DNA of 62,753 nucleotides, counting the filler, from Hausera hauseri (lineage: Eukaryota): assembly GCA_046269625.1 (NCBI GenBank). It is 11 parts of 11 records of this genome, joined end to end, with 100 filler letters (N's around TTAATTAATTAA, not from the genome) between each part and the next. Parts side by side here need not be neighbours in the genome. Positions count along the whole stretch, not along the records: positions 15,149 to 20,489 come from JBJURY010275174.1; 10 more parts are not named here. One strand, written 5' to 3'. This document shows, piece by piece, positions 9,025 to 44,462 of the stretch (position 1 is the stretch's first letter; each line of letters starts with the position of its first letter). A program made the translations under genes and the position numbers. The notes beneath the pieces are model-generated. The model was not told the DNA's origin. It saw only the letters and a program-made list of their open reading frames with translations, and did not search any database.

Positions 9025-11305
9025 TTTCCGCACGCAAGTTGTATCGTTTTTAATGTCGGTCCTAATTCATCTGTAGGAAATAACCCTTTTCTTTCATAAT
9101 CTGTTAATTCGGTCGTCACACCCGTTAACCATATTTGTACAAGTTCTCGTTTATTTGTTAATTCTGATTGCGTGATATTATATTTATTCTTATAAGTCTC
9201 CAATTCCTTGCCGAATTCATCTAGCTTCGTAGCTCTTTGCTTTTCACGAATCCGTAATTCTTCTATATCTTTAACTTAATTTGTCAATTGTCGCATCTTG
9301 TCGTCATCTATTTCTGCCATTGTTGATAGTAGTGAAATTAATTCGTACATTTCTTTTAGACTTTTCGAATCTGGATCTATTGCATCAATCAGTCTCTTTA
9401 CAAATCTAGCTTCGTCCGGTGTGAGGCGATGATCCTTGATTATTTCTATTAATTCAGCATGACAGTTCTGGTCAATGTCTGATGCCCATTCGAAAGGACG
9501 ATGTAGATATTTTAGTACTTCTAACGCAATACGATGATTTGGTCAAATATCCAACGTCGATAGATCACATATGGATATTTCCTCTACAGGCCTTGTTATC
9601 AAGTGTCGTACACCTTCCAGGCGGACACCTTTAGTTTCATCGATAAGGAGGAGATCTTTTCCTGTTTCGCTGATAATTCTATTTCTTTGATCATTGTTTA
9701 CAATTATTCTGTGAGTTTCATTTCCTGATCCTTACTCATAAATCTTAGTCTCAATAACGAATTAAAATCAACTCTGAGGTTTGCCTCTATTTTGTAAACA
9801 TCTAGGTTACGAAGTATTTACTTTAGCTGTTGTTTTAATATCTGTTCACGTTCCGAAAACTTTTTAGACGATACTTCGTTAGACCCACCAATCTGTCTAA
9901 TAGTTCAATCCATTCCTTGACTTGGTTATCTATCATTGGTTTCGCATTTATTACATTTTCTAATCGTTCGTAGGCGTCGTTTAATATATCATCTGGACCC
10001 TTAATATAGTCCATTACTCCTTTAACATAGTTAACTTTCTTCTTGTATTCGTTCAATTCCAAAATGCATGTTTTCGTTATGTTTTGTACTTCTTGATTTT
10101 CCGCATACGTTATTTTATTCTTATATCTGTAGATTTCAGAGCGCCTTTTATCTTGCGAGGCTGTGCATATTCCTATATCCGCATATTCTTTTGGTGCGTT
10201 GAATGCGATCTTGCACATTTCTATTATGAGAGGAATATCTACAGGTTCTATGCCTAGCATTGAAAATTTGTTTTCATCCAATTCGTATATTGGTTTATTT
10301 TTGAGGTGATAAATTACTGCACTCTCTATTTCTGCCATCAAATTCGCTAAGTTCCATTTTGTTCGCTTCTGTTTTGGATCTCTCTCTAGCGTCCTTAGTA
10401 ATCCTTGGGCGGTCGCTACTTTACTCTTGATTTTTATTTCTTGATTATTCCATGTGTGGCTGAATTCGATTCCTCTTTTTATCAATGAATCTAGTTTCGT
10501 CTTCCATTCTTCAGTTGACTTCTCCACAATTTCATCCATTTGCTTTTGATCTTTCTCCTTGTTAACGTCTTCTTCAAGGTATTTTTTAAATTCTTTATAC
10601 ATTCTTTCGGCGAATTGCTGTTCTTTTCCTGACACATCTACTTGAGCTTTTATACGCCTTAATTTTTCCAGATTGTGACGTATAATATCCGCATCTGTCG
10701 GTGCCATCCTAATTTCTTTCAATTTCTCTGCATTTTTCCAGGATTTTCGGATCACCCACATCTTTCCGTCTAGCCTTTTAATTCATTCCGTGCCATCAGT
10801 CTCGCTTTCGCTATCGGTTAATGGACATATCTCATTTATCTCAATGTTCACGTCTCCTACTGTTACGCTAGTGCTTGGAATATCCGTAACTTCAGGAAGA
10901 TCCACACCTGGAGTGTCTAAGTTCGCAGTGTCCTCTATATCCGCATCTCGGACTTGAGTTATCTCTGCATTATCTCTTTTTAATGGCGATCTTGATTGAC
11001 CCTTCGACTTCCTTTTAAGTGATGGACTACGACCTCTATTTTTCGTTATTTTAAGAACTAATGGGGCTATATATTCACTTTTGATTTCGTCAGCCACATC
11101 TTGACGTCCTTCTGTCAGATTTTCAGATCCAGCGTTCAGGTCTACACTGGGCGATACTGCTACTATTTCAGTTTCGTTCACTTTTTTTGCCTCCACGGGC
11201 TTTTTAGGTACATTCTTCTTGCGAACCATATTACTATTGTCTGACGCAATTAATTGCTCATATTTCGTTCGAGGTTCAATTAATTCGTGATATACTTCTA
11301 CTATT
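9025..11305 (-). pseudogene. Long uncharacterised coding region following the Gag zinc knuckle (no protease or RT motifs)
   Basis: In frame with Gag past a single TGA (~11306) into ORF 10783-11229, then ORF 9835-10761 and further coding-like sequence to the contig end. Confidence 0.6.
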
Positions 11306-12800
11306 CAAACGTTATCTTCATATTCCTTTCGAGCCTTCAGGATTTGCGGATTATCTGTTTCTCGTTGGCTTTTCAGGTATCGTCGTGAATCTTGAATATC
11401 CAATATTGCGTTTATGTCACCTCTGGGACCATACTTCGCCTCTAAATCTTCTTGTGTCTTAATCATGCTTGCTTTAGTTGGTTCGGTAAATGAAACGTTT
11501 CGCGGATTTGGGCACGATCTAGCTATGTGACCTTCCTTGCCACATGTGTAACATATTAAGTTTCCGTTTCTACCAATCCGTTGTCAACCGTCCTCATTTA
11601 TGGGGGATTTTGGGCGACTATCGCTCCTAGAATATCCCTGGTTTCCAAATTCTATCCTACTACTTCCGTCATTTCTGTTTTCATTGTTTCTAAAATCATT
11701 GTATCTGTTTTCGTCCTTATGCTTAAAACTTTTTTATTGCTCTTATAACCATCTTGGTTCGAGTTGTAGTTTGGCTTTGCCGCGTTCATACTATTTAAAT
11801 TCCGATTATTGTCAAAGCTTTTATTTCCATAACGTGGATTCCTATCCATCCTATTATCGAAATTTCGATTTCGACTATGTTTGTGGTATCGTCCACTATT
11901 TCTATTTCTATCGCTGCGCTCATTGCGCTCATTTCGTTCGACGTTCCTGTCGTGTCTTTCATTTTGCCTAGCATGTCTGTCTAACGCCATTTCTAGGTCT
12001 TGTGCCAATTGTAATGTTTTCTCAAAGTTTTCTGGTTTCGGTAAAATGAGTTGCTTCACTAGGTCTCTTGACCAAATACCATAAATAAATTGTGGTGTCA
12101 TCATTACATCCAAATCTGACGGAACTGCCTTTTCCACGGCTCTACGTTCGGCGTCGTCTTTTGCCATAGCCATATTTAAAAATCTTAGTGTACTAATATA
12201 ACTATTTGCTAACTTTTTTGAAGCAGACGCAAACTGGGTGACCGATTTGCCCTTCTGTTGCGTCCTATTTTGAAATGCCATTAACTTTTGTTGCGGAGTT
12301 ACCGTCGGTAGTAATTTCCTATTTAATGCTCCTACAAATGACGATCAATCTCTTTTTTCTTCGTCCATTAACTCGACGTAGGCATCTGCGGCCAAATTCT
12401 TTAAGTTAAGCTACAATCGTCCAATCATCTGCTGAGATTCTAACCCCATGCCTTCGGCGTGAAACTTATAAGTTCTTAAAAATTCATTCAGTCCTTCTGG
12501 ATCGCCGTCGTATGCAGTGAATTCAATGATTCATACGTGTAAATGTCTAATTTCTGTCGAGGCGTATCGGCTGTTATTTTATTCCTATTTGCGTCTATTC
12601 TATTTTCTATTTTACGTCGGTTGGTTACTTTATCCGGAACTTTAAAACTTGCTTCTTGATCTTGGTCTAATAACCCTGTTAAATTTTCTCGTGGCTCGAA
12701 TAATGTGCGCTTTTCGTATGAATTCGTTCGTACTTTACTACGGGTTCGTCTTATGTTTAAATTTTCCTTACCGTTTAGGTTTAAATATTCTGATCTACTA
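11306..12800 (-). pseudogene. Ty3/Gypsy-like gag with CCHC zinc knuckle
   Basis: YDGDPEGLNEFL, FQNRTQQKGKSVTQFA (MHR-like), QFIYGI, then ICYTCGKEGHIARSCP (~11510-11557). Some stops and frameshifts. Confidence 0.85.
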
Positions 12801-12970
12801 TGTCTGTCAATAATTGTGCTTTAAAACCCTCTTATTTAAATATAGGACCTTATATCCAGAAATTTTATATATCCTATTCGAATCAATTAATTGGTGCGAT
12901 GTGCTGATCGCTGGGTGTGTAATTAATTAACCCTGAGCTGAAGTAATAGTCTAGCGAGTCACAAACTGTT

Positions 12971-12984
12971 CTGCTAGGTCGCCA
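12971..12984 (-). promoter_or_regulatory. Primer-binding site TGGCGACCTAGCAG
   Basis: TGG-initiated, 2 nt after the LTR-terminal CA. TGGCGACC suggests a tRNA-Arg-type primer (unverified). Confidence 0.75.
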
Positions 12985-12986
12985 AA

Positions 12987-13805
12987 TGTTAGAATTTGGG
13001 TTGGGCCCTAATCGTCTTCAACTATCTAACAATAATTTATCGTAAATTTTATTATTAGCAGATACAGTTTACCGTTCTCGGTAAATCAGGATGTACCTAC
13101 TAGACTTGTATAGATATTAATTCGTGCGGGTACTGCGTGCTTTTCCTGTGCGTCAATTTAATTTCGATTCTCTCTTAGCTATATAAGTTAACTAGATTTT
13201 AGAAACTTAGGGTAGTCTAATCGATCTTAAGGATCGAAGGAAACTATATAAAGAAATTTGAGACTGTTAAACGCACAAAAATATAATACCGATAACAATC
13301 ACGTCAACTGAACCTTTTGATCGCTTTCTAATTTCAATGTTTCCTCTGGTTTCTAACTTCTCTAACGAATCTGTCGTTCAATCGTTTCGTATCTCTTTCG
13401 TACTGCGAACTGATTCAAATTTGTCTTACTTCTCTGAGGAATTCGTTGCTTCAATAGCTTTGATTCATTGCACTGGAGATCAACTCCAAATTGTGTTCTA
13501 ATTCTGTTCAAATTCTGTTCTCATCTCTACAGAAATCCGTCGCTATATATACTATACTGGTTTGACGATTACGTCATTTTCATTCAATTATTTTCTGATT
13601 AAATTTCATTACTTCGATTATCTAATCGATTACTGTGCATTTTTGCCAATTTCTACCACCAAATATTTACACAAAGCACTATTACATCATTTGTAAATTC
13701 TGGTTAACTATTGAATATTCCAATTTATCTGTACACATATCGAATAATTACATAATAGTATTTACATTTTACAACGATGCACTACAGTCTTTACATTTCA
13801 TAACA
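12987..13805 (-). repeat. LTR (~819 bp, TGTTA...TAACA)
   Basis: Inverted TGTTA/TAACA ends, PPT immediately upstream and PBS immediately downstream on the minus strand. Confidence 0.85.
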
Positions 13806-13817
13806 TTTCTCCTCCCT
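13806..13817 (-). promoter_or_regulatory. Polypurine tract AGGGAGGAGAAA
   Basis: Purine run abutting the LTR TG. Confidence 0.8.
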
Positions 13818-13865
13818 GAGCGACACCTTGTATGTGCCTATTGCGTCAGGAGAGGTGGCGTTCGT

Positions 13866-15048
13866 TTATTGTCGGCACAGCAGTTCCAGTCTACTCCGGC
13901 GACTACTGTCGTCAACTATGTTCGCGTCTAACGTATAACTAGTACTGGGTTGATTCGGAATAGGAACAGATCTGTTGCATTCACCGTTTGAAAAATATTT
14001 TAGGCCGTTTGCTTCCGCTCGGCACACTGGACACGTTGTTTTCCCATTATCCAACGTCCATGTCTCTAAACATGTTCGGCAATATTTATGCCTGCATTCT
14101 TGGTTGTCCAATTTAACATGTCCTTGCCAGATATTTTCACTACATACTGTGCAGATATTTTCGTCTTCGTTTGTGTTTTTGTCACCATCTAAATCGACTT
14201 TGGGTACAATTTGGATTCGTTCGAGTACTAGCCCATCCTGGTCGGAATTTAGGTAACCGTATAATTCTTTTTGCTAGGTATTGATTGAACTTTTTCTAAG
14301 GTCATAATTTACGGGAACAAACATCCAGTCCATGATGGTTTCTTTGTCTAAGTCAAGAATTTTACCTTCTTTCTGGTAAGTTTGGTATTGCCTTTTACAC
14401 ATCAGTTTAATTGGGTTATTTACGGGAACAGTCAACTTTCCAGTCCTTTTTGACTTAAATATTGGGGCTAAATATTTCCTTATTTCGGCGTTTTCCCAAG
14501 CGTATGCTCCATCTGGTATTTCTCGTATTCCAGCACTTTTTACGTAAAACATCGCTTCCTTTATTTTATGGTGGCTACAATACTCAGCGGTTACTAGTAA
14601 ACTGGGGAAATCTTTATTTGTTGAAAAATGTACATTTTCTTTCGATCTTTTCTTTTTCAAGACATTCACTTCGGTAAAGATGATATCGTTGTCTGACTTC
14701 CTCCTTTGGGTTTGAGTTCTAGTCTTTTTTTTTTATTTCTTCTGAGTGCATCTCTTTTGTTTTGTCCGGGTTTTCGGTGCTCGTAGATTATTTTTTGTTG
14801 TCATTATTTCGTTTTGGATTTCTGTCTTTTCGGGCTTTTTGTGTTTTGCACTTACCTTTCGGTTATCTTATTCCTTATTTTTCTTTTTGAATAGATATTC
14901 GTACAAGGATAATTTTCTTTTTCCGGTGGCGAATGTTTTCTCTGTTTTGTTCTTTTTGTTTCCTTCTGGGTTTTTTGGTACTTTGAACATTTCTTGACCC
15001 TGGGATTTTTGATTAGTTGATTCTGAATTTTGACTGGCGCTGGGTTTG
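13866..15048 (-). pseudogene. 3' accessory ORF of the LTR element: Lys-rich linker, novel conserved domain and C3HC4 RING finger
   Basis: CTVC-x14-CRHKYCRTC-x12-CPVCR at ~14019-14153, in frame with ORF 14274-14669 across one TAG. Homologous to 19434-20309. Confidence 0.85.
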
Positions 15049-15148: not shown

Positions 15149-16430
15149 TAAGAAAGAAACCCGGCTCGAACGACAAAATCGATCTAGAAGAACAGAAAAT
15201 GCCAAAGTGGTATCCACCTCCTCACTCATTGAGGCCAGAGATAACTAAAGAGGTACAGCGGATGTTAAAGGCCGATATAATACGACAGAGTTAACGATCA
15301 TGGTACTAACTTATACTTATGGGTAAAAAGAAAGGAATTACAAAACATCGATTTTGTATAGATTATCGGGCATTAAATACGCTAATGATGAAAGATTTGT
15401 ATCCTCTACCATCAGCAAAAGAAGCTCTACACAGACTATCAGAAGCAAAATGGTTTACCACTCTCGACTTACAATCGGGATACTGAAAAGTGGAAATCGA
15501 AGAAGAAGACCGATATAAGATAGCGTTTAAACCACACGATGGCGTATACAAATTTAATGCCATGCCTTTCGGCATCATCACTAGACCCGCTATTTATACT
15601 AGAATGATGAATAAGATGCTCATGGGACTTGATCATGCATTCGCGTACTTAGGCGACGTGATAATAGCATTAAAGTGGAGGAAGAACACTTAAAGGACAT
15701 TGAAGATACACTCATGCTGCTAGAACAAGCAGGGCTGAAACTAAATGGAAAGAAATGCAAATGGGCACAGAACGCAGTATCGTACCTCGGACACATAGTT
15801 GGAGAAGGAGGATCAAACGTTTAACTACTACCGCATACCACCCACAATGTAATGGAATGGTCGCAACAGTCATTCGCATATTATCAACAGTAGTGAAAAA
15901 AGACGAAAAGGATTAGGATGAATTCCTAGAAGGAAAACAATTCGCGATTAATACGACTCCACATCCAGCAACAGGGTTCACACCGTTCTTTATGATGTAT
16001 GGACGAGAGGCAATCTTACCCACAGATCTAGGCATGACACCGTGCGAAAAGAATCTCGATGATTTAAAGCAAAACTTTGCCGAAATCTTACAGACAAGAT
16101 TGCAAAAGTGTTGGAAAGTGGCAAAAACATTATCACTTGAATATCAGGAACAATTTAAAAAACAATATGATAAAAAGTCTAAGCCTAATGATCTGAAAAA
16201 GGGAAATTGGATTTATATACATTACCCAGTTGCGAAGAAAGGTACATCCTTGAAATTAACACGTACCGGAAGAGGACCATAAGAAATCGTCCGCACAACG
16301 CCAACCACCATCTATGTTAACAAAAACGGAAAAGAAAAGGTCGTATCAATCCAAAGAGTAGTTAAAACAGATATAAGACCAGCTAAACACTACAATCTAA
16401 GACAGGGAGAAAACAAGACCTCGTCAATTG
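15149..16430 (+). pseudogene. Gypsy pol remnant: RT N-terminal part joined to the integrase C-terminal part
   Basis: RFCIDYRALN, LYPLP, FTTLDLQSGY, AFAYLGDV, then an abrupt jump (~15810) to IKRLTTTAYHPQCNG, GFTPFFMMYGRE and LTRTGRGP(Y). Confidence 0.9.
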
Positions 16431-17807
16431 TCACTAGACCAGTATCTTACGCACAGATAATAGTAGCCTTATCGTTGATTGCTATCCTAACGCCTAAGTC
16501 TAACGCTCAATGGTGGGTCGATGAAAATTCGTTGAGCGATATATATGGAATACGGAAAAGCAGACTAAAACCTTCAGCGCCAAAGGAGGGAATCCCAGCA
16601 CACAAATCAGAACAAGAAGGCGAAAAATTTTTACGAGCAATAAAATTAGATTATTTTTCGCCAGAAACCCCATGTGTTGGATTTAGGTTACCAGGCAAAT
16701 TCAAATACTACTCCATGATGTATTAAACCAAGCCGAGTCTGATTGTAAATTCGAGCTAGAGGATGATACAGCTTGTGTAACGTAGAGTACGGACATTCTT
16801 ACGCCCTCAGTTGTCGTGCATATTTATTCAACTGTAATGAAGTACACTCTGAAACAAATCTGAATTCACACTTAGTTATACTGCAAAATTATGGGGATTA
16901 TCTTAATATACAGCTGGAAGACCTGTTTCAATGTACTGACCCATTGAAACCTAAAAGATAATTGTATCCAAATAAACTCAAAAGGACGATTGATTAAAGG
17001 ACGAGTAATCACAGTTCAATTCCTGAGAGAGGACAAAGCAGCTTATAACCAACAATACTGTCAAATTGACGTTGCAAGGCCCAATAGATGTTGTAAGCTA
17101 CCTCAAGGGTATATATATAGAATTCGGTTAGACTTATACGAAGTTCGACCAAACCAGTCGAGTATTTTCCTGGGAAGCTGCCAACTAAAAATCCAATTTG
17201 GAGAATACCACCGGAAGTGACAACAAGTGGAATTACAACTACAGAAACGAATGTAACTATTCCAACTTCTACCAAAATTCCCCAGACAAGTGGATTACCT
17301 CCGAAGAATCTAGAAACGATTCCAATAAAATATTGGACACAACAGCATAAAATAACATTCATTGTAGAAGAAACACTTAATTACGATGTAGAAATAAGCT
17401 GCCGAACGGTACACAATAATCAGAAAGTAACACTGGTTAAGCGCAGTTACCGAATTAGATTCACCGATCTGAAACCTAAAACGGACTACATAATACAAGT
17501 GGGCGCAGAGAATAAACAAAGTAGAACATTTACAGTACGAACCTTAAATGTGATTATATTAATCAAACCACTGACGAATGAGGAAGCGGAAGGCAAATTT
17601 ACGACTACCGTTGAAACGGAAAAGCTAACTAAATGGACAACCACATCAGTAATATTAATTATTTTAACATCAATATTTGCTTTCGTAATTCTAATTGCGT
17701 TTTGCCAATTGATCTCCAAAAACTGTTGTAGTAAGCGTCATAAAATTACCGAGAGAGAACTAAGGGTGATGGTACCACAGAACGAAATTAATGATGGAAT
17801 AACCTGA
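16431..17807 (+). pseudogene. Env-position type-I membrane protein: internal signal sequence, beta-rich ectodomain, Thr-rich stalk, FN3-like domain, TM helix, Cys-rich tail
   Basis: IIVALSLIAILTPKSNA-Q signal in the integrase frame; TTSGITTTETNVTIPTST; FTDLKPKTDYIIQVGAEN (FN3 L-x-P-x-T-x-Y-x-I-x-V-x-A); TM SVILIILTSIFAFVILIAFC. Confidence 0.75.
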
Positions 17808-18479
17808 CAACTGCACATCGGGTTATTCCACCATCAAACAAAGAATTGATTCAGATTTAGAACAATACTTTGTTTTAGGACTGACCCTTATTTTGTATTT
17901 TCTTTCAGAATGGTAAGTATAATCAGCCGAATTTGAGTCGACGAATTCCTATAAGGATACGCAACAGTCTTCATTCCAACATCGAAAGTTATATACAGAA
18001 GGATAAATGACGCATTACAAACAGAAACGTACGTTGAATACCGGAAAGAAAACGAAATATTAAATGACTTGAAGGGTGCCACAGAAGAGAACCACACAGT
18101 TGTCCTATAGGCGATGCGCGAAAACAATCAAGCTAAGTCGTATGGCCTTAAGGAACTGATCCGAAATAAAATTACCCAAGTGGAAGATATATTTATTTAT
18201 CTAGCTAGAAAACCATCTAGAATAGAAAACCAACGATGGAACTGTAATGAAGGGCGCCGATACCGATTTAGTACATTCAGAATAAGCGGACAAGGCCTAG
18301 AAAGTATTAAATATGGTCTAGAATTTAGAATAGCGACCCCCCTGTTAAACTTATGTTTGAGGTGATACATAGAAAAAACTGCAACTTAGGCTTGCCAGTA
18401 CTAGAATTCAAACAAATCCCAACCGAAGCGGAGAAGGACGAACATCACCAGTCATTTAGGCTAGTACAGGATGGTCGTA

Positions 18480-18960
18480 ACATAAGAATTATGGCTATAA
18501 ATTGTGGCAGAGGAGACGATGGGTATGGGAAACCTATCGAAGTACCTATTGAAGAAAGAGATGGAACTGAGCTTTACTCTACCATTATAAACCCCGGAAA
18601 CATGTTCAAGAATCATATGCAGAAGTAAATGGTTTAAGAAAAAAACAACTTATAAGCGGAAAAGACATTCAACAGGTCTGTTCTGAGTTAGACCATTGCC
18701 TCTACGGGTGTATGATAACGGGATACAACGTAAAACGGGAAATCGAGCTATTAAGGATATCCGATGCAAATATTGCCGGACTTAGGGAAATAGCTGCTCA
18801 CCCGATGGTTCAGAATCGAATGAAGAAGACCGTACAAGGAAGAAATAGGCCGACCACACCGGAAGCCTTCTTTAAGTTGATGATTGAATCAATGAATAGT
18901 AATTTAGGCAGAATTTCAAGACTTCTAACAACCAGCCAATGTTCAAATATTTAAAAGAAA
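18480..18960 (+). pseudogene. DEDDh/RNase T-like 3'-5' exonuclease domain in the 3' accessory ORF
   Basis: IMAINCG..KPIEV....DGTELYSTIINPG....NGLRKKQL..GKDIQQVCSELDHCLYGCMITGYNVKREIELL..LREIA follows the REX4/DnaQ pattern. Exo I acidic residues are altered in this copy. Confidence 0.65.
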
Positions 18961-19433
18961 TTTACAAATCATTAAAATGGAAACATAAGTGGACTCCCAG
19001 GAACCCCACGTATAATCTACGCAATTCTTTAAAACCCGAAACAATAAAAACCGAATATAGAAAGAATATCAAACCTTATTCCCCAGCCAGAACCGTCCAG
19101 CCCATAAGTACACATAGCCTTATGGTTACACTACAAGAACCTATGGAAAAACAAGACGAAAACAAAACCGACTTACAAACGAAAAATAAAAGCAACATTA
19201 TGCCAAAGAAACAAAGAGAGGAACGAAGACTGGAATTAACGACTAAGAAACCAAAATTACAAGAGAAATCCCAATTCAAGAAGATATCATCTATTTATAA
19301 CTACCTATTCAAGAAGAAAAGAGAAGATGAGGAACAAAAAGTGGAGAAACAACAAAACAGTCCAAGTACCTCACAGAAGATAGAACCTATATAAAAGAGA
19401 ATTAAAAGTCCCATAATAACTGAAATTAATGCC

Positions 19434-20309
19434 GTGATAGGAAAGAGAATAAAAGGGAACATACATTGCAGAACAGCTCAAGATTTTCCCAGAATGCTGG
19501 TAACCACCGAATATTATAGTAAAAAGATAATAAAGGAAGCCATGTTTTTCATCAAACGTGCTCCAGCAATAGAAGTCTTTGAGAACACCTACGTATGGGA
19601 GAATTCCAAGCTAGGAGCTTACCTCACATCAGTCTTCCGTTCAAAAAGAACCGGGAAAATAATAGTTCCCGTGGATAAACAAATTCGAATATTGCTAAAG
19701 AAACAATATCAGAAATATAAAATAGAAGGGAAGATTCCCGACCTAGATAAAGATCTCATGGCGAATTGGACCTTGAAAGAAGTAAACTGTGACCCTCGAA
19801 AAAGCACCATTAACCCCAAACAAAAGGTGATACATGGATATCTGTATCAGGACGGGGATGGTCTCGTGTTCGAACCCATCGAATTAATTATTCAAGCTGA
19901 CTTGGATAGAGACAATTGAGACAAGGAAGATAACGAATGTCCCGTATGTGATACATACTTAAGGCAAGGCTATGTAGTTATAGACAATAAAAATTGCTGC
20001 CACAAATACTGTCGAGATTGCCTAGAGAAGTGGACACTCGACAACGAAAAGAGAACATGCCCCGTATGTCGGGCAGAGGCCACGGAATTGAAATACTACT
20101 CCGACGGGAGTTACACACGAATTGTTCGGATCAAACCTTACCATAGTTACAATTTGGAAACAAGCCCAGTAACCAATCAAGACCAACGAAATTCACCAAC
20201 AGATCTGCCTGAAAGAATAAATCAATTAAGACAACCTAGGACCTTGGGCGCCACCTCTTCTGACGCAATAGGCTACTTCGAGGATGCCGCTCAGCGAGGA
20301 GAGATGTAA
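19434..20309 (+). pseudogene. 3' accessory ORF C-terminal half: novel conserved domain and C3HC4 RING finger
   Basis: CPVC-x14-CCHKYCRDC-x12-CPVCR at 19938-20072, in frame across one TGA (19917-19919). Clear homology to 13866-14669. Confidence 0.85.
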
Positions 20310-20489
20310 CATAATGGATTGTAAATAATCGAAAACGCGAATTGTTTGCTCGAGCAGTGATTGAATGTAGATTGGAAGTATCAATAATGAAATTGTTGAA
20401 GAATTTAGATTATCAAAATATGTGACAATTACTCGGTAATTGAAGAAATGATCGAAAATGCATTAAAACACGAAAAATTCAATTTAATT
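20293..20489 (+). repeat. PPT (AGCGAGGAGAGA) and start of the 3' LTR (TGTAAC at 20305), truncated by contig end
   Basis: Same arrangement and sequence context as 13806-13860 on the related element. Confidence 0.75.
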
Positions 20490-36748: not shown

Positions 36749-37632
36749 NNNNNNNNNNNNNNNNNNNNNNNNNNNNNNNNNNNNNNNNNNNNTTAATTAA
36801 TTAANNNNNNNNNNNNNNNNNNNNNNNNNNNNNNNNNNNNNNNNNNNNATTCGGTATTAAATGCTTATGAAATTTACAATCTTGCAGGATTACCTTGAGC
36901 ATAATTGGTGTGCTATCCTCTACGCTTAGCAAATTTATTAAAGCCTGTTATGAAGTGCAATGGCGAGTTAAATTGGAAAAACACGTGGATTATAAGGGCA
37001 ATCCAATACTGGAAGATACCTAATCAAGTTCAGATGATGGTGATAATGCACCTGGACATTACTCAAAAGCAAGCACTTCTAAGAAATAGAAAAGAAGAAT
37101 CAGAAAAATTTTTACAACAAAGAAACCAAAACTAAAGAACTGTCATATAGTATCAGTGCTCCGTATGAAAATAAAACACCTCCGATTTACAAATGACCGA
37201 AGTTACTTCATTTAAGTGATCCATATGCTAAAAGAGAAGAATACATACGCTACGCAGTATTCCCAAATATTCGCAAGAAGAAATACTTCAGTCTATTATT
37301 ACTCAAAGGATGGAAAGAAATCGAGTATCCCTGCCAATCTCTACACAATTAGGTGTAATGCCACCAATACTTCTTCATCGCGCAAAATGAATAGGCCAAT
37401 CGACAATAATGATATCGAACAACCACTAGAAAGGAGGACAAATTATTCGATTTTAAAGGTAGCACCTGGTAACTTACAACAAAACTCTACAGAACGTACA
37501 AACTATTACCCAGATTTAGCTGAATTCAAACCATGAACGAAAGAACCAACAAACGACACGCAATCTTTAGATAGCTTAACGGTCGTACTATCCAATGGAA
37601 CACTAAGTTATTGTGCAGCAACTTACACCTTA

Positions 37633-40600
37633 ATGGAGCCACATATAGATGATCATAATGACATCCTAACTTTCCTCGAATTAATAAGAGATAATCGACC
37701 TCATACTACAGTTCACATTGGCACATTCGATCTAAATGCAATGGTGGACACAGAAGCCAGCGTTTCTTTAATAGCAAAACATACGATACCAGACGAATAT
37801 CAGCCTAGAATAAAATTGGCCTCAAGGAATGTACTGGTACGACTTCAGTTTTTCAGCATTGTTTGAAACCATATAGGTATTGGAAATGTGAACCTAGAAT
37901 TTGTTGGAAAGAACTAAAAGTGACTTTAGGTGTGATGACAACTTTAAACCCCCGATGTATTTTAGAAATGAATGCATTGAAAGACTTAGAAGGATTTCAC
38001 ATAAATTTCTAGTCAGGATCGATTTGTCCAAATAATGAGGATATTCCAGCTAAATACGATAAAATGGACATTTAGATAGGACATATGGAGAAAATACCAC
38101 TTAATTCTATGATGGTATACATGCCAGAACATTTCCACATAACAAAGTAAGTGAATTTATACCACGGATATTTCAAAATAGATTGTTATTGCCACATTAT
38201 TGTGTTAAGATAACTGAAGGTACAATTCCCATTGAAGTTTTGAATTCCTTTCCTAAGTATACTACAATGTGTGCAAGGATGAAATTAGGTCAAGCACATA
38301 AAACTACTCGTCAATCTAAATATGATAGTAAAATCGCAGCAATCACTGAAGATAAGGGAATTAAAGCAGAATACATGTTCAATGTTGTTCTTACAAAAGC
38401 AAAGAAAAATTTATCTGTCAAATACCTTGAGAACTTTTCAGACCTTATTTTTTAGTACATTGACATTTTTGCCAAAAACGAAACAGACATTAGATGAACG
38501 GACCTATTCGAGTTTAAACTAGCATTCATGATGGATCCTCAAACCGGAAAAGAAATATACCTACTACGGCAGCCGACACCAAAATGGTATCCAACTCCAA
38601 AAGCATGCCAAAAGGAAGTTGACGAGCAAATACAAGCCATGCTAGAAAAAGGCATCATTGAACCTATTCAATCACCATAGCCATCGCCTATAGTTATGAC
38701 AAAGAAAGCCAATACAACGAAACACCTTTGTGTGTAAATTACGTCACACTGAACAAGCAACTTGCGAACCATATTTATCCAATACCGCGAATACGAGATA
38801 TTATTGACGAGTTAAAATTATGCAAATACTTCACCACCTTGGACCTGTAAGTGGATTTGGGTAGATACCAGTTGTCGAAAAGGATCGTTGGAAGACAACG
38901 TTCAAAACACATGCAGGTGTTTATCAATTTACACGTATGCTATTCGGACTGCAACTGCACCTACGTTCTTCCACGAATTTATTAGACTAGTTTTAAAAGT
39001 AGTACGCGGTCTATCATATATAGACCATATTTAAATTGCGTCAAAAACATGGTCAACACACTTAACCGAATTACGAGAAGTATTCAATTAAATCAAAATG
39101 GCTGAATTGAAACAGAATCCAAAAAAATGTGAATGGTACAAAACTAAAGTCAAATATCTTGGATTTGTTGTCTGAAATCAAGGCATATCTACCAGTCCAA
39201 ATTTAATATCCAAAATCTTGAAATATCTCCCACCAACAAGCGTATATGAGATGACAGTCTGGTTAGGATTAGGAGGATTTTATGCTACGTATATTCAGAA
39301 TTTTGCAGAAATAAATCAACCCCAGTATAAATTGCTTAGAAAGGATCAGAAATGAGAATGGACGGAAGAAAATCAAGAACCATAGTATCAGCATCCATAT
39401 TACGATATCCGGATTTTTCACTACAATTTATTCTGAAAACCGACTCCAGCATTAAAGCTACTAGTTACATTTTAGAGCAACAGTGTCCGGAAGAGACAAC
39501 TAAGCATGTAATTGCACATGGAAGACGAAGTTTAAATAAGGCCGAAAGGAAATATTCTACCACGGAATTACAATTATTAGCAATACGCGACGGTCATAAG
39601 GTCATAATATTCACGAACCATAAAGCACTACTTCCTTTGCGTTCAGACAATAGACATGCATCAAGCCGACTCTAAAGATGGACGTTAGAGCTTTTGAATT
39701 ATGACATCGAATATAGATATTGACCCGGAAAGGACAATGCAGACACATATGCAACTTCTAGATTACCTTATAAAAATATACTTGTTACCCTTCATAAACC
39801 AAAAGACAGAGAAAAAGATAAACAGTTAAATGAGAAAATTATTAATGTCATGTTACAGGAACAGAGGAAAATTCAGGCTCGAAATATCGAAGCCTTACAA
39901 AATCATAATCCATTTATTGTCCAAGTCAAACACTTAACAAATGGAAAGACGGTTGATTAAGTATCAAGTCATATTCAGAAATTTTACCGACAACATATGG
40001 AACAATTGGACATTGAAAATGGAATATTAAAACTTAAAGTTCGTAAAATTAGCTAATTATTGTACCCAATTCAGCAATCAAGGCAGTTATGCTGCAAGAG
40101 CATGACTCACATCTAGCGGCTCATCCGTCCTTAAACAAGACATTGAAACGCATTGCCACAAAATATTATTTACCTCAAATGAACAAACATATTGAGGGAT
40201 AAATATGTTCTTGTAAAATGTGCGCTACCAGAAAGGATAGGGGATTCCGTGCAAAGCTTTTTTTAAGAAGTCTTCTCCAAGCACGACAAACTATTAAGGT
40301 TTGTTCGATGGACATTTCTGGATCATTTTCCAACATCGGAATCAGGATACAAGTACATTTTATCAGTTGTTGACTATAATTTCAGATATGTTGATCTAAT
40401 ACCTTTTAAAAATATGATCAGTTATACCGTCGCCGAAGCATTCTTTTATGATGTCGTAGCCGTACTAGTCACTTCAAAACAGTTATTGACTGACCGCGTA
40501 CCATACTTTATTAGCGAATTTTTCGAAAAATTATCAAAGATATTCCAGTGTAAACATCTGCTGACAACATCCTACCATCCGCAATGTAATCATATGGTTT

Positions 40601-41200
40601 AACGAATGAATCGGAGAATTCAATTATTCTATCAACAAAAGTTGCACATGACCAAAAAGATTGGTAACTAAATCTTAAAACCACAGCCTTTGCAATTAAC
40701 ACTACACCTACAAAGAGTACCGACCATTCGCCATTCGAACTGATGTTTGGCAGATTGCCACTTCTACCATTGGATACAGAGTTGTTGCCATCTTCGCTGA
40801 AAACAAGTGATTATATGGATGACCAATACCAAAACTTGTTAAAGAGACTTGAATATTTTCAAACGGAAGCCAAAATATAAAGCTGGTTATAAGAAAGGAT
40901 TTAATAAGAAAGCTCGTTTACATGCGCATAAAACTGCCGATTATATAATGATACATTACCCCGCCGTTAAGAAAGGAAAATCCATAATGCTAACACGTAC
41001 CGGACAAGGACCGTACAAAGTGGTAGATGTCCATCCTCAAACTGTTTTTATAGAGAAAGGGTAGGATAAATACGAAGCTGTATTTGTAAAACGAGTTACG
41101 AGAGACCCCGCCTCGTATAATGAATTCATACGACAAACAAAGCTATATTCACCGGAAGTGGTAAAACCTAAAGCAGCCGAATGATAAGAAATCTAATGGT
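37633..41200 (+). pseudogene. Decayed Gypsy pol (PR-RT-RNH-IN) of the large-element clade
   Basis: AMVDTEASVSL, PKWYPTP (shared with 15149-16430), FILKTDSS, TELQLLAI, HDSHLAAH, TSYHPQCN, HYPAVKKGKSIMLTRTGQGPY (shared with the 16200 region). Confidence 0.9.
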
Positions 41201-41236
41201 TACCGAGTTCACATAATATCGGGTAGATACTACGGT

Positions 41237-42620
41237 ATGGTTTTACTTATCCTACTCACGTTTTTCTGGAAACCTACAGCCACTTCAGACAACAATACTG
41301 ATGTACAAATAGCTAATTTCGAATTGGTCCAACGCACTACCATTACTCATGTCAACACAAGTAAACCTAGTATTTGCTTTAGGACGTATTTACCAGTATA
41401 TTCACGGCACGACGAAAATTACAAAAATTCAAGTCATCGGAGAATATATCGACCAGCTGTATAATCCCAGAAAAACACTATAAAACTTGTTATCAATTGC
41501 GATACAATACATCTTATAGCTATTACGTACTAGTAAAAACTTTTGATCACTATGAAAATCACAAATGGAAATCAGACATAAATATGCATATTCCAACTCA
41601 TGAGACCATCACAAGCCTGGCTAAATCAGACATAGAAAATTACGACGAGTTTTCCGCCCAATTCTTAGAGACTAATGTCGAAATCTCAGACGTAGATCTA
41701 AATCCCCCATCCATCAAGTTCCGAACTACACAACTATTGACCACTGGATATGAAATCAATATGTGGTATGATTCTTACGCCAGATATTTGCCTCAGCCAC
41801 ATTTCTGTCACCTCAGTGGAACACATGCTTAGACGTGCTGTACCCTCTGTACAGATGTTTGGTACTCAAATCGTTTTTATATGTACTTAAGGCTAAACTA
41901 CAATCCTAGTAACCGAATTCATTCTTACGGATTACTAATCTTTATCTTTGTCAAACATAAACAACTGAACCCGATCTCAAGCTCGGTTGCAAGTACAACT
42001 ACTGCAGCAAGACTTACTACAATTAATACCACATCAACTACAGGAGTAGTCATCCCCAAGAGTAGGATAAAGAAGAATGACAATTATGATGGTGATATTC
42101 TCAAATTAAAATTAAAATTAAAGCCGAAAATAAACAAACATATATTTCATACAAAACTTATGAAGGATTCCCCAATAAAAGTAAGATTAACACCTTACAC
42201 AAATCGAATTGAGATAATTCTTCCTCAGAAAATAAAAGAAGAAAATATAGTGATAACCTGCACTAATATGTATGGAAAAGTTTGAATCAAATATAATAAA
42301 AATAAAACGACCTTTTACGCAGAGTTAATTCCTGACACAAATTACCTAGTGTCGATAAAGGCATGGGATAATGGTAAACTTTTGGCAATAAAGACGTTGC
42401 CTATATGAACACATAAGATATAATGAGGAAGACGAAAAACTTAGAATAACCACATATGCACCATTAATAACAGATATATTTTACAAAATATTGGTGGATA
42501 TTCGATGTAATAGCTGGAGTTGGCACTACTGCATTTTTAACAGCTGTTTGGGAAGAGCAAAAGATGTCGAAAGAGAAGAACGTATGAATCACAACACTCA
42601 GTAATCCGAACAAACCGAGT
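41237..42620 (+). pseudogene. Env-position type-I membrane protein with Thr-rich stalk and FN3-like domain (decayed)
   Basis: Signal MVLLILLTFFWKPTATS; STTTAARLTTINTTSTT; YAELIPDTNYLVSIKAWDN (~42315-42372); TM-like YWWIFDVIAGVGTTAFLTAVW (~42489-42551). Confidence 0.65.
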
Positions 42621-44039
42621 TTATGCTACAATAGAACCCTACTCAGCCCTTAAGGATAGAACAAAAGAAACAGATGGAGAAACTAATGAATTACAGGATA
42701 TTGAAGGTACAGTATCAATAATATCAGACAGAAAAGAAAACAGACATACAACATTTTGTTTCATACCAATTTTAGTATTAAGATTCATTAAAAATATCCC
42801 TAAGAATCAATTGGAGGAATTGGTTACAAACTGTTCACTGAAAACCGTTACTATTGGAGGACTAATCATTATGGTTCAAATCATTACAAGTAGAATTTTA
42901 ACCAATCAGAGAAAACATAACTCAATGCAAATTTTCATTGCTCAACTGATCAAATTTAGCCAGTGTGTCAAAAACGATTATAAATTGGAGTTACTTACTT
43001 GAAATTCTGATAAAATGCCAAAACGAAACAACTTTCAGTATCAAGCTCCCAAAATGGGGAGCCTCAATCAAAGTAAAAAGCAAGTTGGAAATCAGACACA
43101 GACAGATCCTAGAAAAAAGAATATAACCCGAAAAATTCTGGCTATCATATTGTCATCTCATCGTGGAATCAGACGCCTCTCCGCCGCAGAACAAAACATG
43201 TCCATCGTATTCTACAAAAGGATAATACAACATCCTGGAGAAAAGATATGTAAATTCGGAGAGATTCCAAACTACTTCAAATGTGGAGAGCTTCGCAACA
43301 GACTACTCATTCCTCTTAAAATAGTCAAAATTAACACAAAATATCAACTACCAAAGCTAGCTGAAAATAATGTCTGAATCGCAATACAAGTAGTTTAGGG
43401 AAAAGTCGAAATAAAATTTCACGGATCAGATAAGGAAACTGATAACGTAAGTCAGAAGTCGGATAACGATGAAGACCAGATAGAAATTATACATAATCAG
43501 GAATCAATCCAGATTAATTAGCCTTGGGAACCAGACCGCATACAGTTGGTCACAAAAAATGATGACCATCAAATGACTTGAAATATTAAAGACAAAAATA
43601 ATTCATCACTGGCCAGAACCGATGAAGTTTAAAGAGGAACCATCAGAAAAAAAACTAGGGAAAGAAACCATAACATTTTATTGACAAGCAAAACGAGAAG
43701 CACGCGAATGGACTTCCAAAAAGCGCAAGCTGAATTCATCAAATGCATTATGGGATTTAAAGCCGTTGCCTTAGAGGTCCACAAAGTTTTTAAAGCATTG
43801 CACATACCAGTGACTATCGCTAGTGCAATATTCGACCCAATGAGATGTCTAGAAAGAATTAATGAAGAAGCAATCACCAACATAAGTCAAATGGCCAAAA
43901 CCATGGGATTACTGAAATACCAGAGTATCATTGTAGGTGTGGTGCCCACAGCGGTCGGTGCCGTTTGCCCATTTTGTCAGGCACGGTCGGGTTTTTGTTG
44001 CCGCCGCGTCGGGTCCATAGTCGGTCCCGATCTTCCGCT

Positions 44040-44462
44040 TCGACATTTTACAATTTCTCGAGTCTTCCGATTTTCAGCCGAATATTGCAAAGTACATTGA
44101 TCAAAAATTTGTCTGTCAGCTACTCGAATTGTTTGATACAAAACATCCTCGAGAACGAGATTTTCTCAAAACTCTGTTACACCGGATATATGGGAAATTT
44201 TTAGGATTAAGAGCAAACATTAGGAAACAAATAAATTATACTTATTATCGATTCATTTACGAACATGAATGTCACCATGATGTTGCCAAGTTGCTACATA
44301 TTCTCGGATGTATCATAAACGGGTTTGCTCTTCCTCTTAAAGAAGAACATACTTAAATAAGAACATTCTATTCCGTTTTCTGCTACCTCTTCACAAAGCA
44401 AAATTACTAAGTGTATACCATCCTCAATTGGCATACTGCGTTGTTCAATTTCTCAAAAAAGA
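44040..44462 (+). pseudogene. PPP2R5: PP2A B'/B56 regulatory subunit (PPP2R5) fragment, decayed
   Basis: [48 protein letters not shown]...[38 protein letters not shown]. Contains stops and frameshifts. Confidence 0.9.

Follow-up and report, generated by a model that had tools for sequence, protein, structure and literature searches.

Viral RING E3 ligases such as ICP0 degrade host defence factors. PML, a host TRIM protein, carries an N-terminal RING, B-boxes and a coiled coil. Its isoform 1, PML-1, contains a pseudo-exonuclease that binds nucleic acids (PMC13659232). Among mobile elements, the giant gypsy-like Burro/GYPSM1 elements of planarians contain a RING zinc-finger motif (AIR1), other ubiquitin-related domains and env homology, and interference with the host is proposed for them in the available portion of that report (PMC6431247). 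According to the excerpted text, the bdelloid LTR elements Juno and Vesta have a DEDDy ORF3 of the DnaQ superfamily that lies downstream of pol and keeps its catalytic residues (PMC5408684), and DEDDh is present in KolobokD DNA transposons, as stated in the accessible section of a further study (PMC9587614). RING and DEDD domains are each already known from invertebrate LTR elements.

In the present work we analysed a 62,753-nucleotide stretch of DNA from Hausera hauseri (hereafter the window), which is made of 11 assembly fragments with N-padded spacers between them, and found an accessory gene that is real, conserved and element-encoded. In order, the gene comprises an N-terminal domain, a DEDDh-like exonuclease domain without catalytic acids, a basic linker, a domain that could be placed in no known family (the orphan domain) and a RING finger, with no introns between the domains. 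Judged by the available text, Burro/GYPSM1 resembles it as a gypsy-like LTR element with env homology and a RING; compared by description only, however, the Burro domains lie within a polyprotein of about 4,900 aa (Gag-Env-Pol) in a 30-kb element, whereas the RING described here is the last domain of a separate 3' gene (PMC6431247). Juno and Vesta, as far as the accessible text describes them, share with it a DnaQ-superfamily exonuclease ORF located 3' of pol in invertebrate LTR retrotransposons, but theirs is DEDDy/RNase D-like with its catalytic residues retained, whereas ours gives DnaQ/PolC-type matches, reads A-x-N at motif I and is fused to a RING (PMC5408684). The term RING is absent from the text of the Juno and Vesta paper (PMC5408684). 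The RING of PML is N-terminal whereas that of the accessory gene is C-terminal; PML-1 is the nearest functional analogue through its pairing of pseudo-exonuclease and RING. In P0005, an intact relative described below, no B-box was present among 22 Pfam matches at E up to 5, and a PDB search with its exonuclease part returned no PML chain. By these comparisons the accessory protein appears to fall outside the TRIM/PML family, and the domain pairing that it shares with PML is likely convergent.

Two copies of the gene were found, copy 1 on the plus strand of the fragment at 15149-20489 and copy 2 on the minus strand of the fragment at 9025-15048; because the window joins 11 fragments, the copies are not genomic neighbours. 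A tblastn search with query P0001 (window 19395-20306) aligned 19413-20282 (+) with 14681-13827 (-), with E 2e-82 and 48% of 293 columns identical as protein, and revealed no third copy elsewhere in the window. The initial annotation, made by eye, had paired 19434-20120 with 13960-14669 on the basis of shared motifs. This pairing stands, with the strand of the second segment corrected to minus, and every motif named was recovered in both copies: DFP (19482 in copy 1 and 14612 in copy 2), IKEAMF (19530 and 14564), WEN (19596 and 14498), KRTGK (19644 and 14450), DLDK (19740 and 14354), GYL (19836 and 14258) and DGLV (19857 and 14237). WEN and QYQ are absent from the third sequence, P0005. The single in-frame stops noted earlier, one per copy and at different sites, lie at 19917 and 14276 within the limits then considered, and further breaks lie upstream. 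Over the whole gene, copy 1 is interrupted by stops at 17952, 18108, 19392 and 19917 and shifts frame near 18335, 18590 and 18951; in copy 2, stops occur at 14870, 14735 and 14276, and the fragment end truncates it at 15048. Both window copies are dead, and selection acted on the lineages separating them.

The copies were compared codon by codon. Nucleotide identity at the three codon positions was 0.65, 0.76 and 0.42 (240 codons), 12 of the 35 four-fold sites were identical, and pN/pS was 0.37 across the two copies, with synonymous sites near saturation. In the orphan domain, pS was 0.70 and pN 0.29, giving a dN/dS of 0.175, which is imprecise because dS is saturated, and a pN/pS of 0.41 (95% bootstrap 0.31-0.52). 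The RING had a pS of 0.90 (saturated) and a pN/pS of 0.26 (95% bootstrap 0.14-0.42). The tail region gave a pN/pS of 0.82 over 28 codons and is no clean neutral control, because copy 2 shifts frame there. Purifying selection acted between the two lineages. The earlier suggestion that the DNA had diverged while the protein was conserved under past purifying selection is borne out by the third-position identity of 0.42 and by a dN/dS of about 0.18 in the orphan domain, far below 1.

The RING is of the C3HC4 type and lies at 19938-20069 (+) in copy 1 and 14022-14153 (-) in copy 2, with the spacing C-x2-C-x15-C-x-H-x2-C-x2-C-x12-C-x2-C in both; in P0005 it occupies residues 747-790 of 870. Window 19920-20159, which spans the RING of copy 1, is free of stops. 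Pfam zf-C3HC4 scored 27.0 and 26.9 bits in the two copies (cut-off 21), and P0005 was also above the cut-off. All eight metal ligands and the Trp reported by the initial annotation were confirmed in both copies, together with a linchpin Arg; the eight ligands, the helix Trp, the Pro and the Arg right after the last ligand were present in 3 of 3 sequences. The helix Trp has a role in RING E3s, and the Trp, Pro and Val positions of such RINGs are E2 contacts. In the available part of the source, an Arg after the last ligand is named the linchpin and is the commonest and most effective residue at that position; the same text states that the Arg linchpin is missing in about half of human RINGs, so that its presence is a pointer and not proof (PMC7667886). 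In the structure model, residues 148-217 exceeded a pLDDT of 50 and were mostly at 76-84. RING and U-box chains filled the list of fold matches, among them RNF4 and Ring1B, with Z of 6.0-6.4 and an rmsd of 2-3.6 A across 55-62 residues, and the best sequence and fold matches taken together were RING E3s (RNF4, RNF38, Ring1B). The RING homodimer prediction scored 0.01, which counts neither for nor against a dimer. Parasite-encoded C3HC4 RING proteins provide a further likeness, since the viral Foldseek list was filled by RING E3s (herpesvirus ICP0, baculovirus IE2, PE38 and CG30, poxvirus p28); these matches were weak, however (best E 7e-4, 9-31% identity), and confined to the RING, no shared second domain being found. 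The annotated element-encoded E3 ligase stands as to its element origin and its retained active-E3-type residues, and ligase activity itself is probable.

The orphan domain lies at 19413-19916 (+) in copy 1, with a conserved core of about 145 aa from 19482, and at 14160-14681 (-) in copy 2. Pairwise identity was 45-49%, and 46 of 155 columns were invariant in an alignment of three sequences, two of them pseudogenes. In the pairing of the two copies, the domain by itself scored 383, whereas 1000 shuffles reached 59 at most. No family in Pfam, PHROG or PDB matched the domain. Homologues were likewise lacking among 136 candidates of 251-800 aa and, with a three-sequence profile, among 563 candidates of 80-268 aa. 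In the JGI metagenomes, none of 307 and none of 126 pattern matches proved to be a locus, nor did any of 25 in IMG/VR. The alternative named with the first description, that both segments are recent copies of a host RING gene, finds no support here, the domain having matched no host-type gene in the protein libraries searched, which are mostly microbial. Structure prediction, proposed at the same time as a check, gave only a pLDDT of 25-34 for the domain when modelled from three sequences, compared with 76-84 for the adjoining RING; AlphaFold applied to P0005 alone gave a mean of 31. The fold searches effectively covered the RING only, and because the fold prediction is low, any role of the orphan domain is a guess; it may be a new fold. 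Two candidates were rejected. For copy 1, ESM Atlas clusters (0.95-0.96) pointed to domain 2 of the RNA polymerase subunit Rpb2, at a recognition of 1610, below the mark of 2300, and this was not repeated with P0005. PDB 9mhi, a Neisseria periplasmic zinc protein according to the search listing, gave a motif-like match (E 0.13-1.5) that was attributed to chance.

An exhaustive search with the orphan domain among 1.84 billion representatives gave three matches, of which one, P0005, was real (E 4e-31). The other two, P0006 and P0007, were repeat-protein artefacts made of 20 and 5 short stretches, respectively. P0005 is a singleton of 870 aa from a 16-kb ENA contig and has no internal stop, so that the continuous ancestral ORF postulated from the two broken copies now has an intact natural counterpart. 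It aligns with the window at 37-45% identity, in four frame pieces that span 17937-20306. When its residues 50-745 were used as the query, it retrieved only itself among 6858 candidates. Its first 54 residues are hydrophobic and match nothing in the window; a mis-called start is more probable for them than a signal peptide. The RING and the domain of about 150 aa had been taken for the whole unit; this view is incomplete, for they are the C-terminal third of a predicted accessory protein of about 800 aa that includes the pseudo-exonuclease. The N-terminal domain of this protein (17937-18400, +) shows 41-45% identity to residues 58-281 of P0005 in two frames. We presume by eye a resemblance to a double-stranded beta-helix of the AlkB/2OG-Fe(II) oxygenase or cupin type; whole-protein scans of P0005 against Pfam and PHROG gave no oxygenase-family match. 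The basic linker is poorly conserved and lies at 18996-19412 (+) in copy 1 and 14682-15048 (-) in copy 2, where the fragment end truncates it.

A splice-acceptor-like site precedes the gene at 17880-17918 (+) and consists of CTGAC, a pyrimidine tract and CAG at 17908, followed by ATG at 17910. Of 40 YAG sites that were scored for that strand of the fragment, this CAG ranked first, with 15 of 18 pyrimidines, and the region matching P0005 starts just downstream of it. The protein of about 800 aa would accordingly be read from a spliced RNA, if the site is used. We also observed a donor-like GTAAGT at 17913, only four bases (AATG) past the acceptor-like CAG (17908-17918, +), and the AATG between the two sites could be a start-codon micro-exon.

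The exonuclease-like domain resembles the DEDDh/DnaQ type and occupies 18440-18995 (+), with the motif I region at 18488 and the motif II region at 18721. Residues of about 245-345 of P0005 matched DnaQ (PDB 8h18, E 1.1e-4) and the PolC exonuclease (2p1j, E 4.6e-4); the exonuclease part also matched phrog_192, a phage exonuclease family (E 1.1e-4), and Pfam RNase_T at E 0.013 and 16.5 bits, under the cut-off of 24. These matches are weak, agree across three libraries and span only about 85 residues. At motif I, P0005 and copy 1 each read A-x-N in place of D-x-E, and the Asp of motif II is replaced by M in P0005. The A-x-N reading in two sequences therefore makes the domain likely to be a pseudo-exonuclease. 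The same protein could then be a nucleic-acid-binding decoy or regulator assembled from dead enzyme domains, in which the RING serves as a zinc-binding scaffold devoid of ligase activity, and the loss of catalytic acids in a domain that selection kept speaks for such a protein. In the RING, however, the linchpin Arg is invariant in 3 of 3 sequences, as are the Trp, Pro and Val, although these differ at 27-36% of RING positions, and we regard a catalytically silent RING as improbable compared with an active one.

Copy 1 ends an element of the Ty3/Gypsy type. Its broken reverse transcriptase (15199-15810, +; Pfam RVT_1 E 1.7e-16) matched 4ol8 (E 3e-26) best in the PDB, followed by 7q5b, a Ty3-G Gag-Pol chain (E 1.5e-25), with retroviral reverse transcriptases at E 1e-5 or weaker; it is Ty3-type and closer to Ty3 than to the retroviral enzymes. 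The element is cut off upstream, and the reverse transcriptase stands before the tail of an integrase, whose C-terminal part (15815-16441, +) was located by tblastn against the integrase region 40552-41169 of a related element. Neither RNase H nor rve was matched by Pfam in this fragment. The reverse transcriptase directly abuts the integrase tail (15810-15830, +). The copy 1 element appears to have lost RNase H together with most of its integrase core.

Downstream lies a broken ORF for an env-like membrane protein (16430-17807, +), with a signal-like stretch at 16457, a Thr-rich part, an FN3-like domain and a hydrophobic stretch at 17649; the signal and transmembrane stretches were assigned by eye. 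Pfam gave FN3-type matches only, to Pur_ac_phosph_N (E 7e-6) and, under the curated cut-off, to fn3 (E 9.5e-4), and there was no PHROG match. The env slot holds an FN3-like membrane protein with no recognisable fusogen. Errantiviruses, the env-carrying Ty3/gypsy elements of metazoans, are alike in having pol followed by a membrane-protein ORF, but passages of their survey describe Env of the F type or the HSV gB type, in contrast to the FN3-type matches found here (PMC13524379). The main text of the survey mentions neither RING nor fibronectin, ubiquitin or accessory (PMC13524379), and a search of the open-access literature for an FN3-type env-slot protein returned one unrelated paper.

The accessory gene is the last ORF, downstream of pol and the env-like ORF in copy 1, and its end lies just inside the 3' LTR. 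In copy 1 the polypurine tract is at 20293-20304, the LTR starts with TG at 20305, and the stop codon of the gene is at 20307-20309 (feature 20293-20489, +). In copy 2 the polypurine tract (13817-13806) is followed by an LTR-like stretch of 819 bp from TG at 13805 to a CA ending at 12987 (feature 12987-13817, -). All three proteins end in GEM or GGEML; the window copies read this end across the junction of polypurine tract and LTR, and P0005 has GGEML as does copy 2. Because of this shared end, P0005 likely derives from a sister retroelement. We noted that about 55 bases before the LTR (20253-20308, +; 13858-13802, -) are far more alike in DNA than the neighbouring coding sequence, and in run X1 this bin gathered many contigs. 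A cis-acting element around the polypurine tract is likely. A hairpin at the tract had z -2.3 in copy 2 and was absent from copy 1 (z +0.65).

The LTR-like stretch of copy 2 occurs once within the window and contains no Pfam domain in six frames (best E 0.074). Two bases past its end, TGGCG at 12984 begins a PBS-like TGGCGACC (12970-12984, -), which we take to resemble tRNA primers. The next element carries a gag-like ORF (11500-12540, -) with a zinc knuckle (zf-CCHC E 1.9e-6 at 11553-11506); its capsid part was recognised by eye only and had no Pfam match. From this arrangement copy 2 and the gag-bearing element read as a tandem with one common LTR. Past the zinc knuckle, about 750 codons are largely open and charged (9027-11304, -), with no recognisable protease or reverse transcriptase and no Pfam family over its cut-off.

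Many diverged relatives of the element exist. In run X1, the one run found to contain the stretch and possibly the sample from which it came, 9111 contigs fell on the 5341-bp element 1 and a further count of 1090 was obtained for the region of copy 2, with 30 of 30 bins covered in each; no RNA data set was listed as containing the stretch; the contigs were mostly below 95% identity, and their number is not a copy number. Within the window, a related Gypsy element at 36849-44462 (+) contains protease, reverse transcriptase, RNase H and integrase in this order, as well as an env-like ORF of its own. A PP2A B56 regulatory-subunit fragment without introns (44045-44416, +; Pfam E 1.6e-35) adjoins the last ORF of this related element, and may be a host mRNA picked up at the place of the LTR. 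By the same route, the accessory gene might be captured host cargo, that is, a host RING gene carried unused, or host paralogues captured twice; besides the PP2A B56 fragment, this is favoured by the composition of the protein libraries searched, which are mostly microbial and may miss genes of this host. Yet the reading frame ends on the junction of polypurine tract and LTR in both copies, the sole real match among the representatives searched has the same end, no introns separate the domains, and many diverged contigs cover the gene. We consider passive cargo highly improbable.

The slot 3' of env in the related element is filled differently. tblastn found no match to the accessory gene in this env-bearing element, which has at that place another broken ORF (42541-44010, +) with a Cys-rich motif at its end and without a Pfam or PHROG match; part of this ORF resembles an SGNH/GDSL esterase, by eye only. 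Because another ORF occupies the same slot, the accessory gene is optional, and a gene that is optional or swappable would therefore fit a conflict with the host better. This bears on the possibility that an active E3 acts on the element's own Gag or env-like protein, or on host trafficking machinery, so as to drive particle assembly, budding or uncoating; the pseudo-exonuclease would then hold the ligase on the genomic RNA. The gene lies directly 3' of the element's env-like membrane ORF, which agrees with such a function, and the RING evidence is identical to that for a host-directed ligase. The env-bearing relative, however, has another ORF in place of the RING gene, which makes the latter dispensable for the element plan, and we hold a role in the element's own assembly to be rather unlikely.

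Our preferred explanation is that the accessory gene product is an element-encoded ubiquitin ligase, most probably directed against host silencing or restriction proteins, and we give it slightly less than an even chance. The choice of a host target draws on viral RING proteins, by analogy, and the present data fit both host and self targets. Under this explanation, a spliced subgenomic RNA using the acceptor at 17908 would express the gene; the pseudo-exonuclease and the basic linker would bind nucleic acid, either element RNA or cDNA or small-RNA complexes; the orphan domain beside the RING would grip a protein target or position the E2; and the RING would bring in host E2~ubiquitin and tag the target. 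The initial annotation suggested the orphan domain as a substrate adaptor, a role that it may have; as a candidate for the targeting part, the pseudo-exonuclease would be at least as good. A more elaborate form, which we put forward as a doubtful conjecture, is that an invertebrate Gypsy lineage evolved a nucleic-acid-guided ubiquitin ligase, in which dead enzyme domains locate element RNA or a host silencing complex attached to this RNA, a host restriction factor is held by a domain of new fold, and the RING brings about the destruction of this factor. If true, such a ligase would be the retrotransposon counterpart of counter-defence of the ICP0 or Vif type and a mirror image of host PML.

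In summary, what appears new is a variant retrotransposon accessory gene with one orphan domain, whose function we infer. A search of the open-access literature by title and abstract start returned no description of a pseudonuclease-RING fusion, and the open-access literature searched contained no paper on a working retrotransposon-encoded ubiquitin ligase. The value of the finding is bounded by three sequences and by a function drawn from sequence and model. The present window contributes a selection estimate, the anatomy of the LTR junction and a splice-site lead. LTR-element accessory genes of invertebrates are poorly understood, and a conserved active-type RING joined to a pseudo-nuclease and an orphan domain offers a small, assayable handle on the possible evasion of host silencing. 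The target of the ligase would, in turn, indicate the anti-transposon factor of the host.
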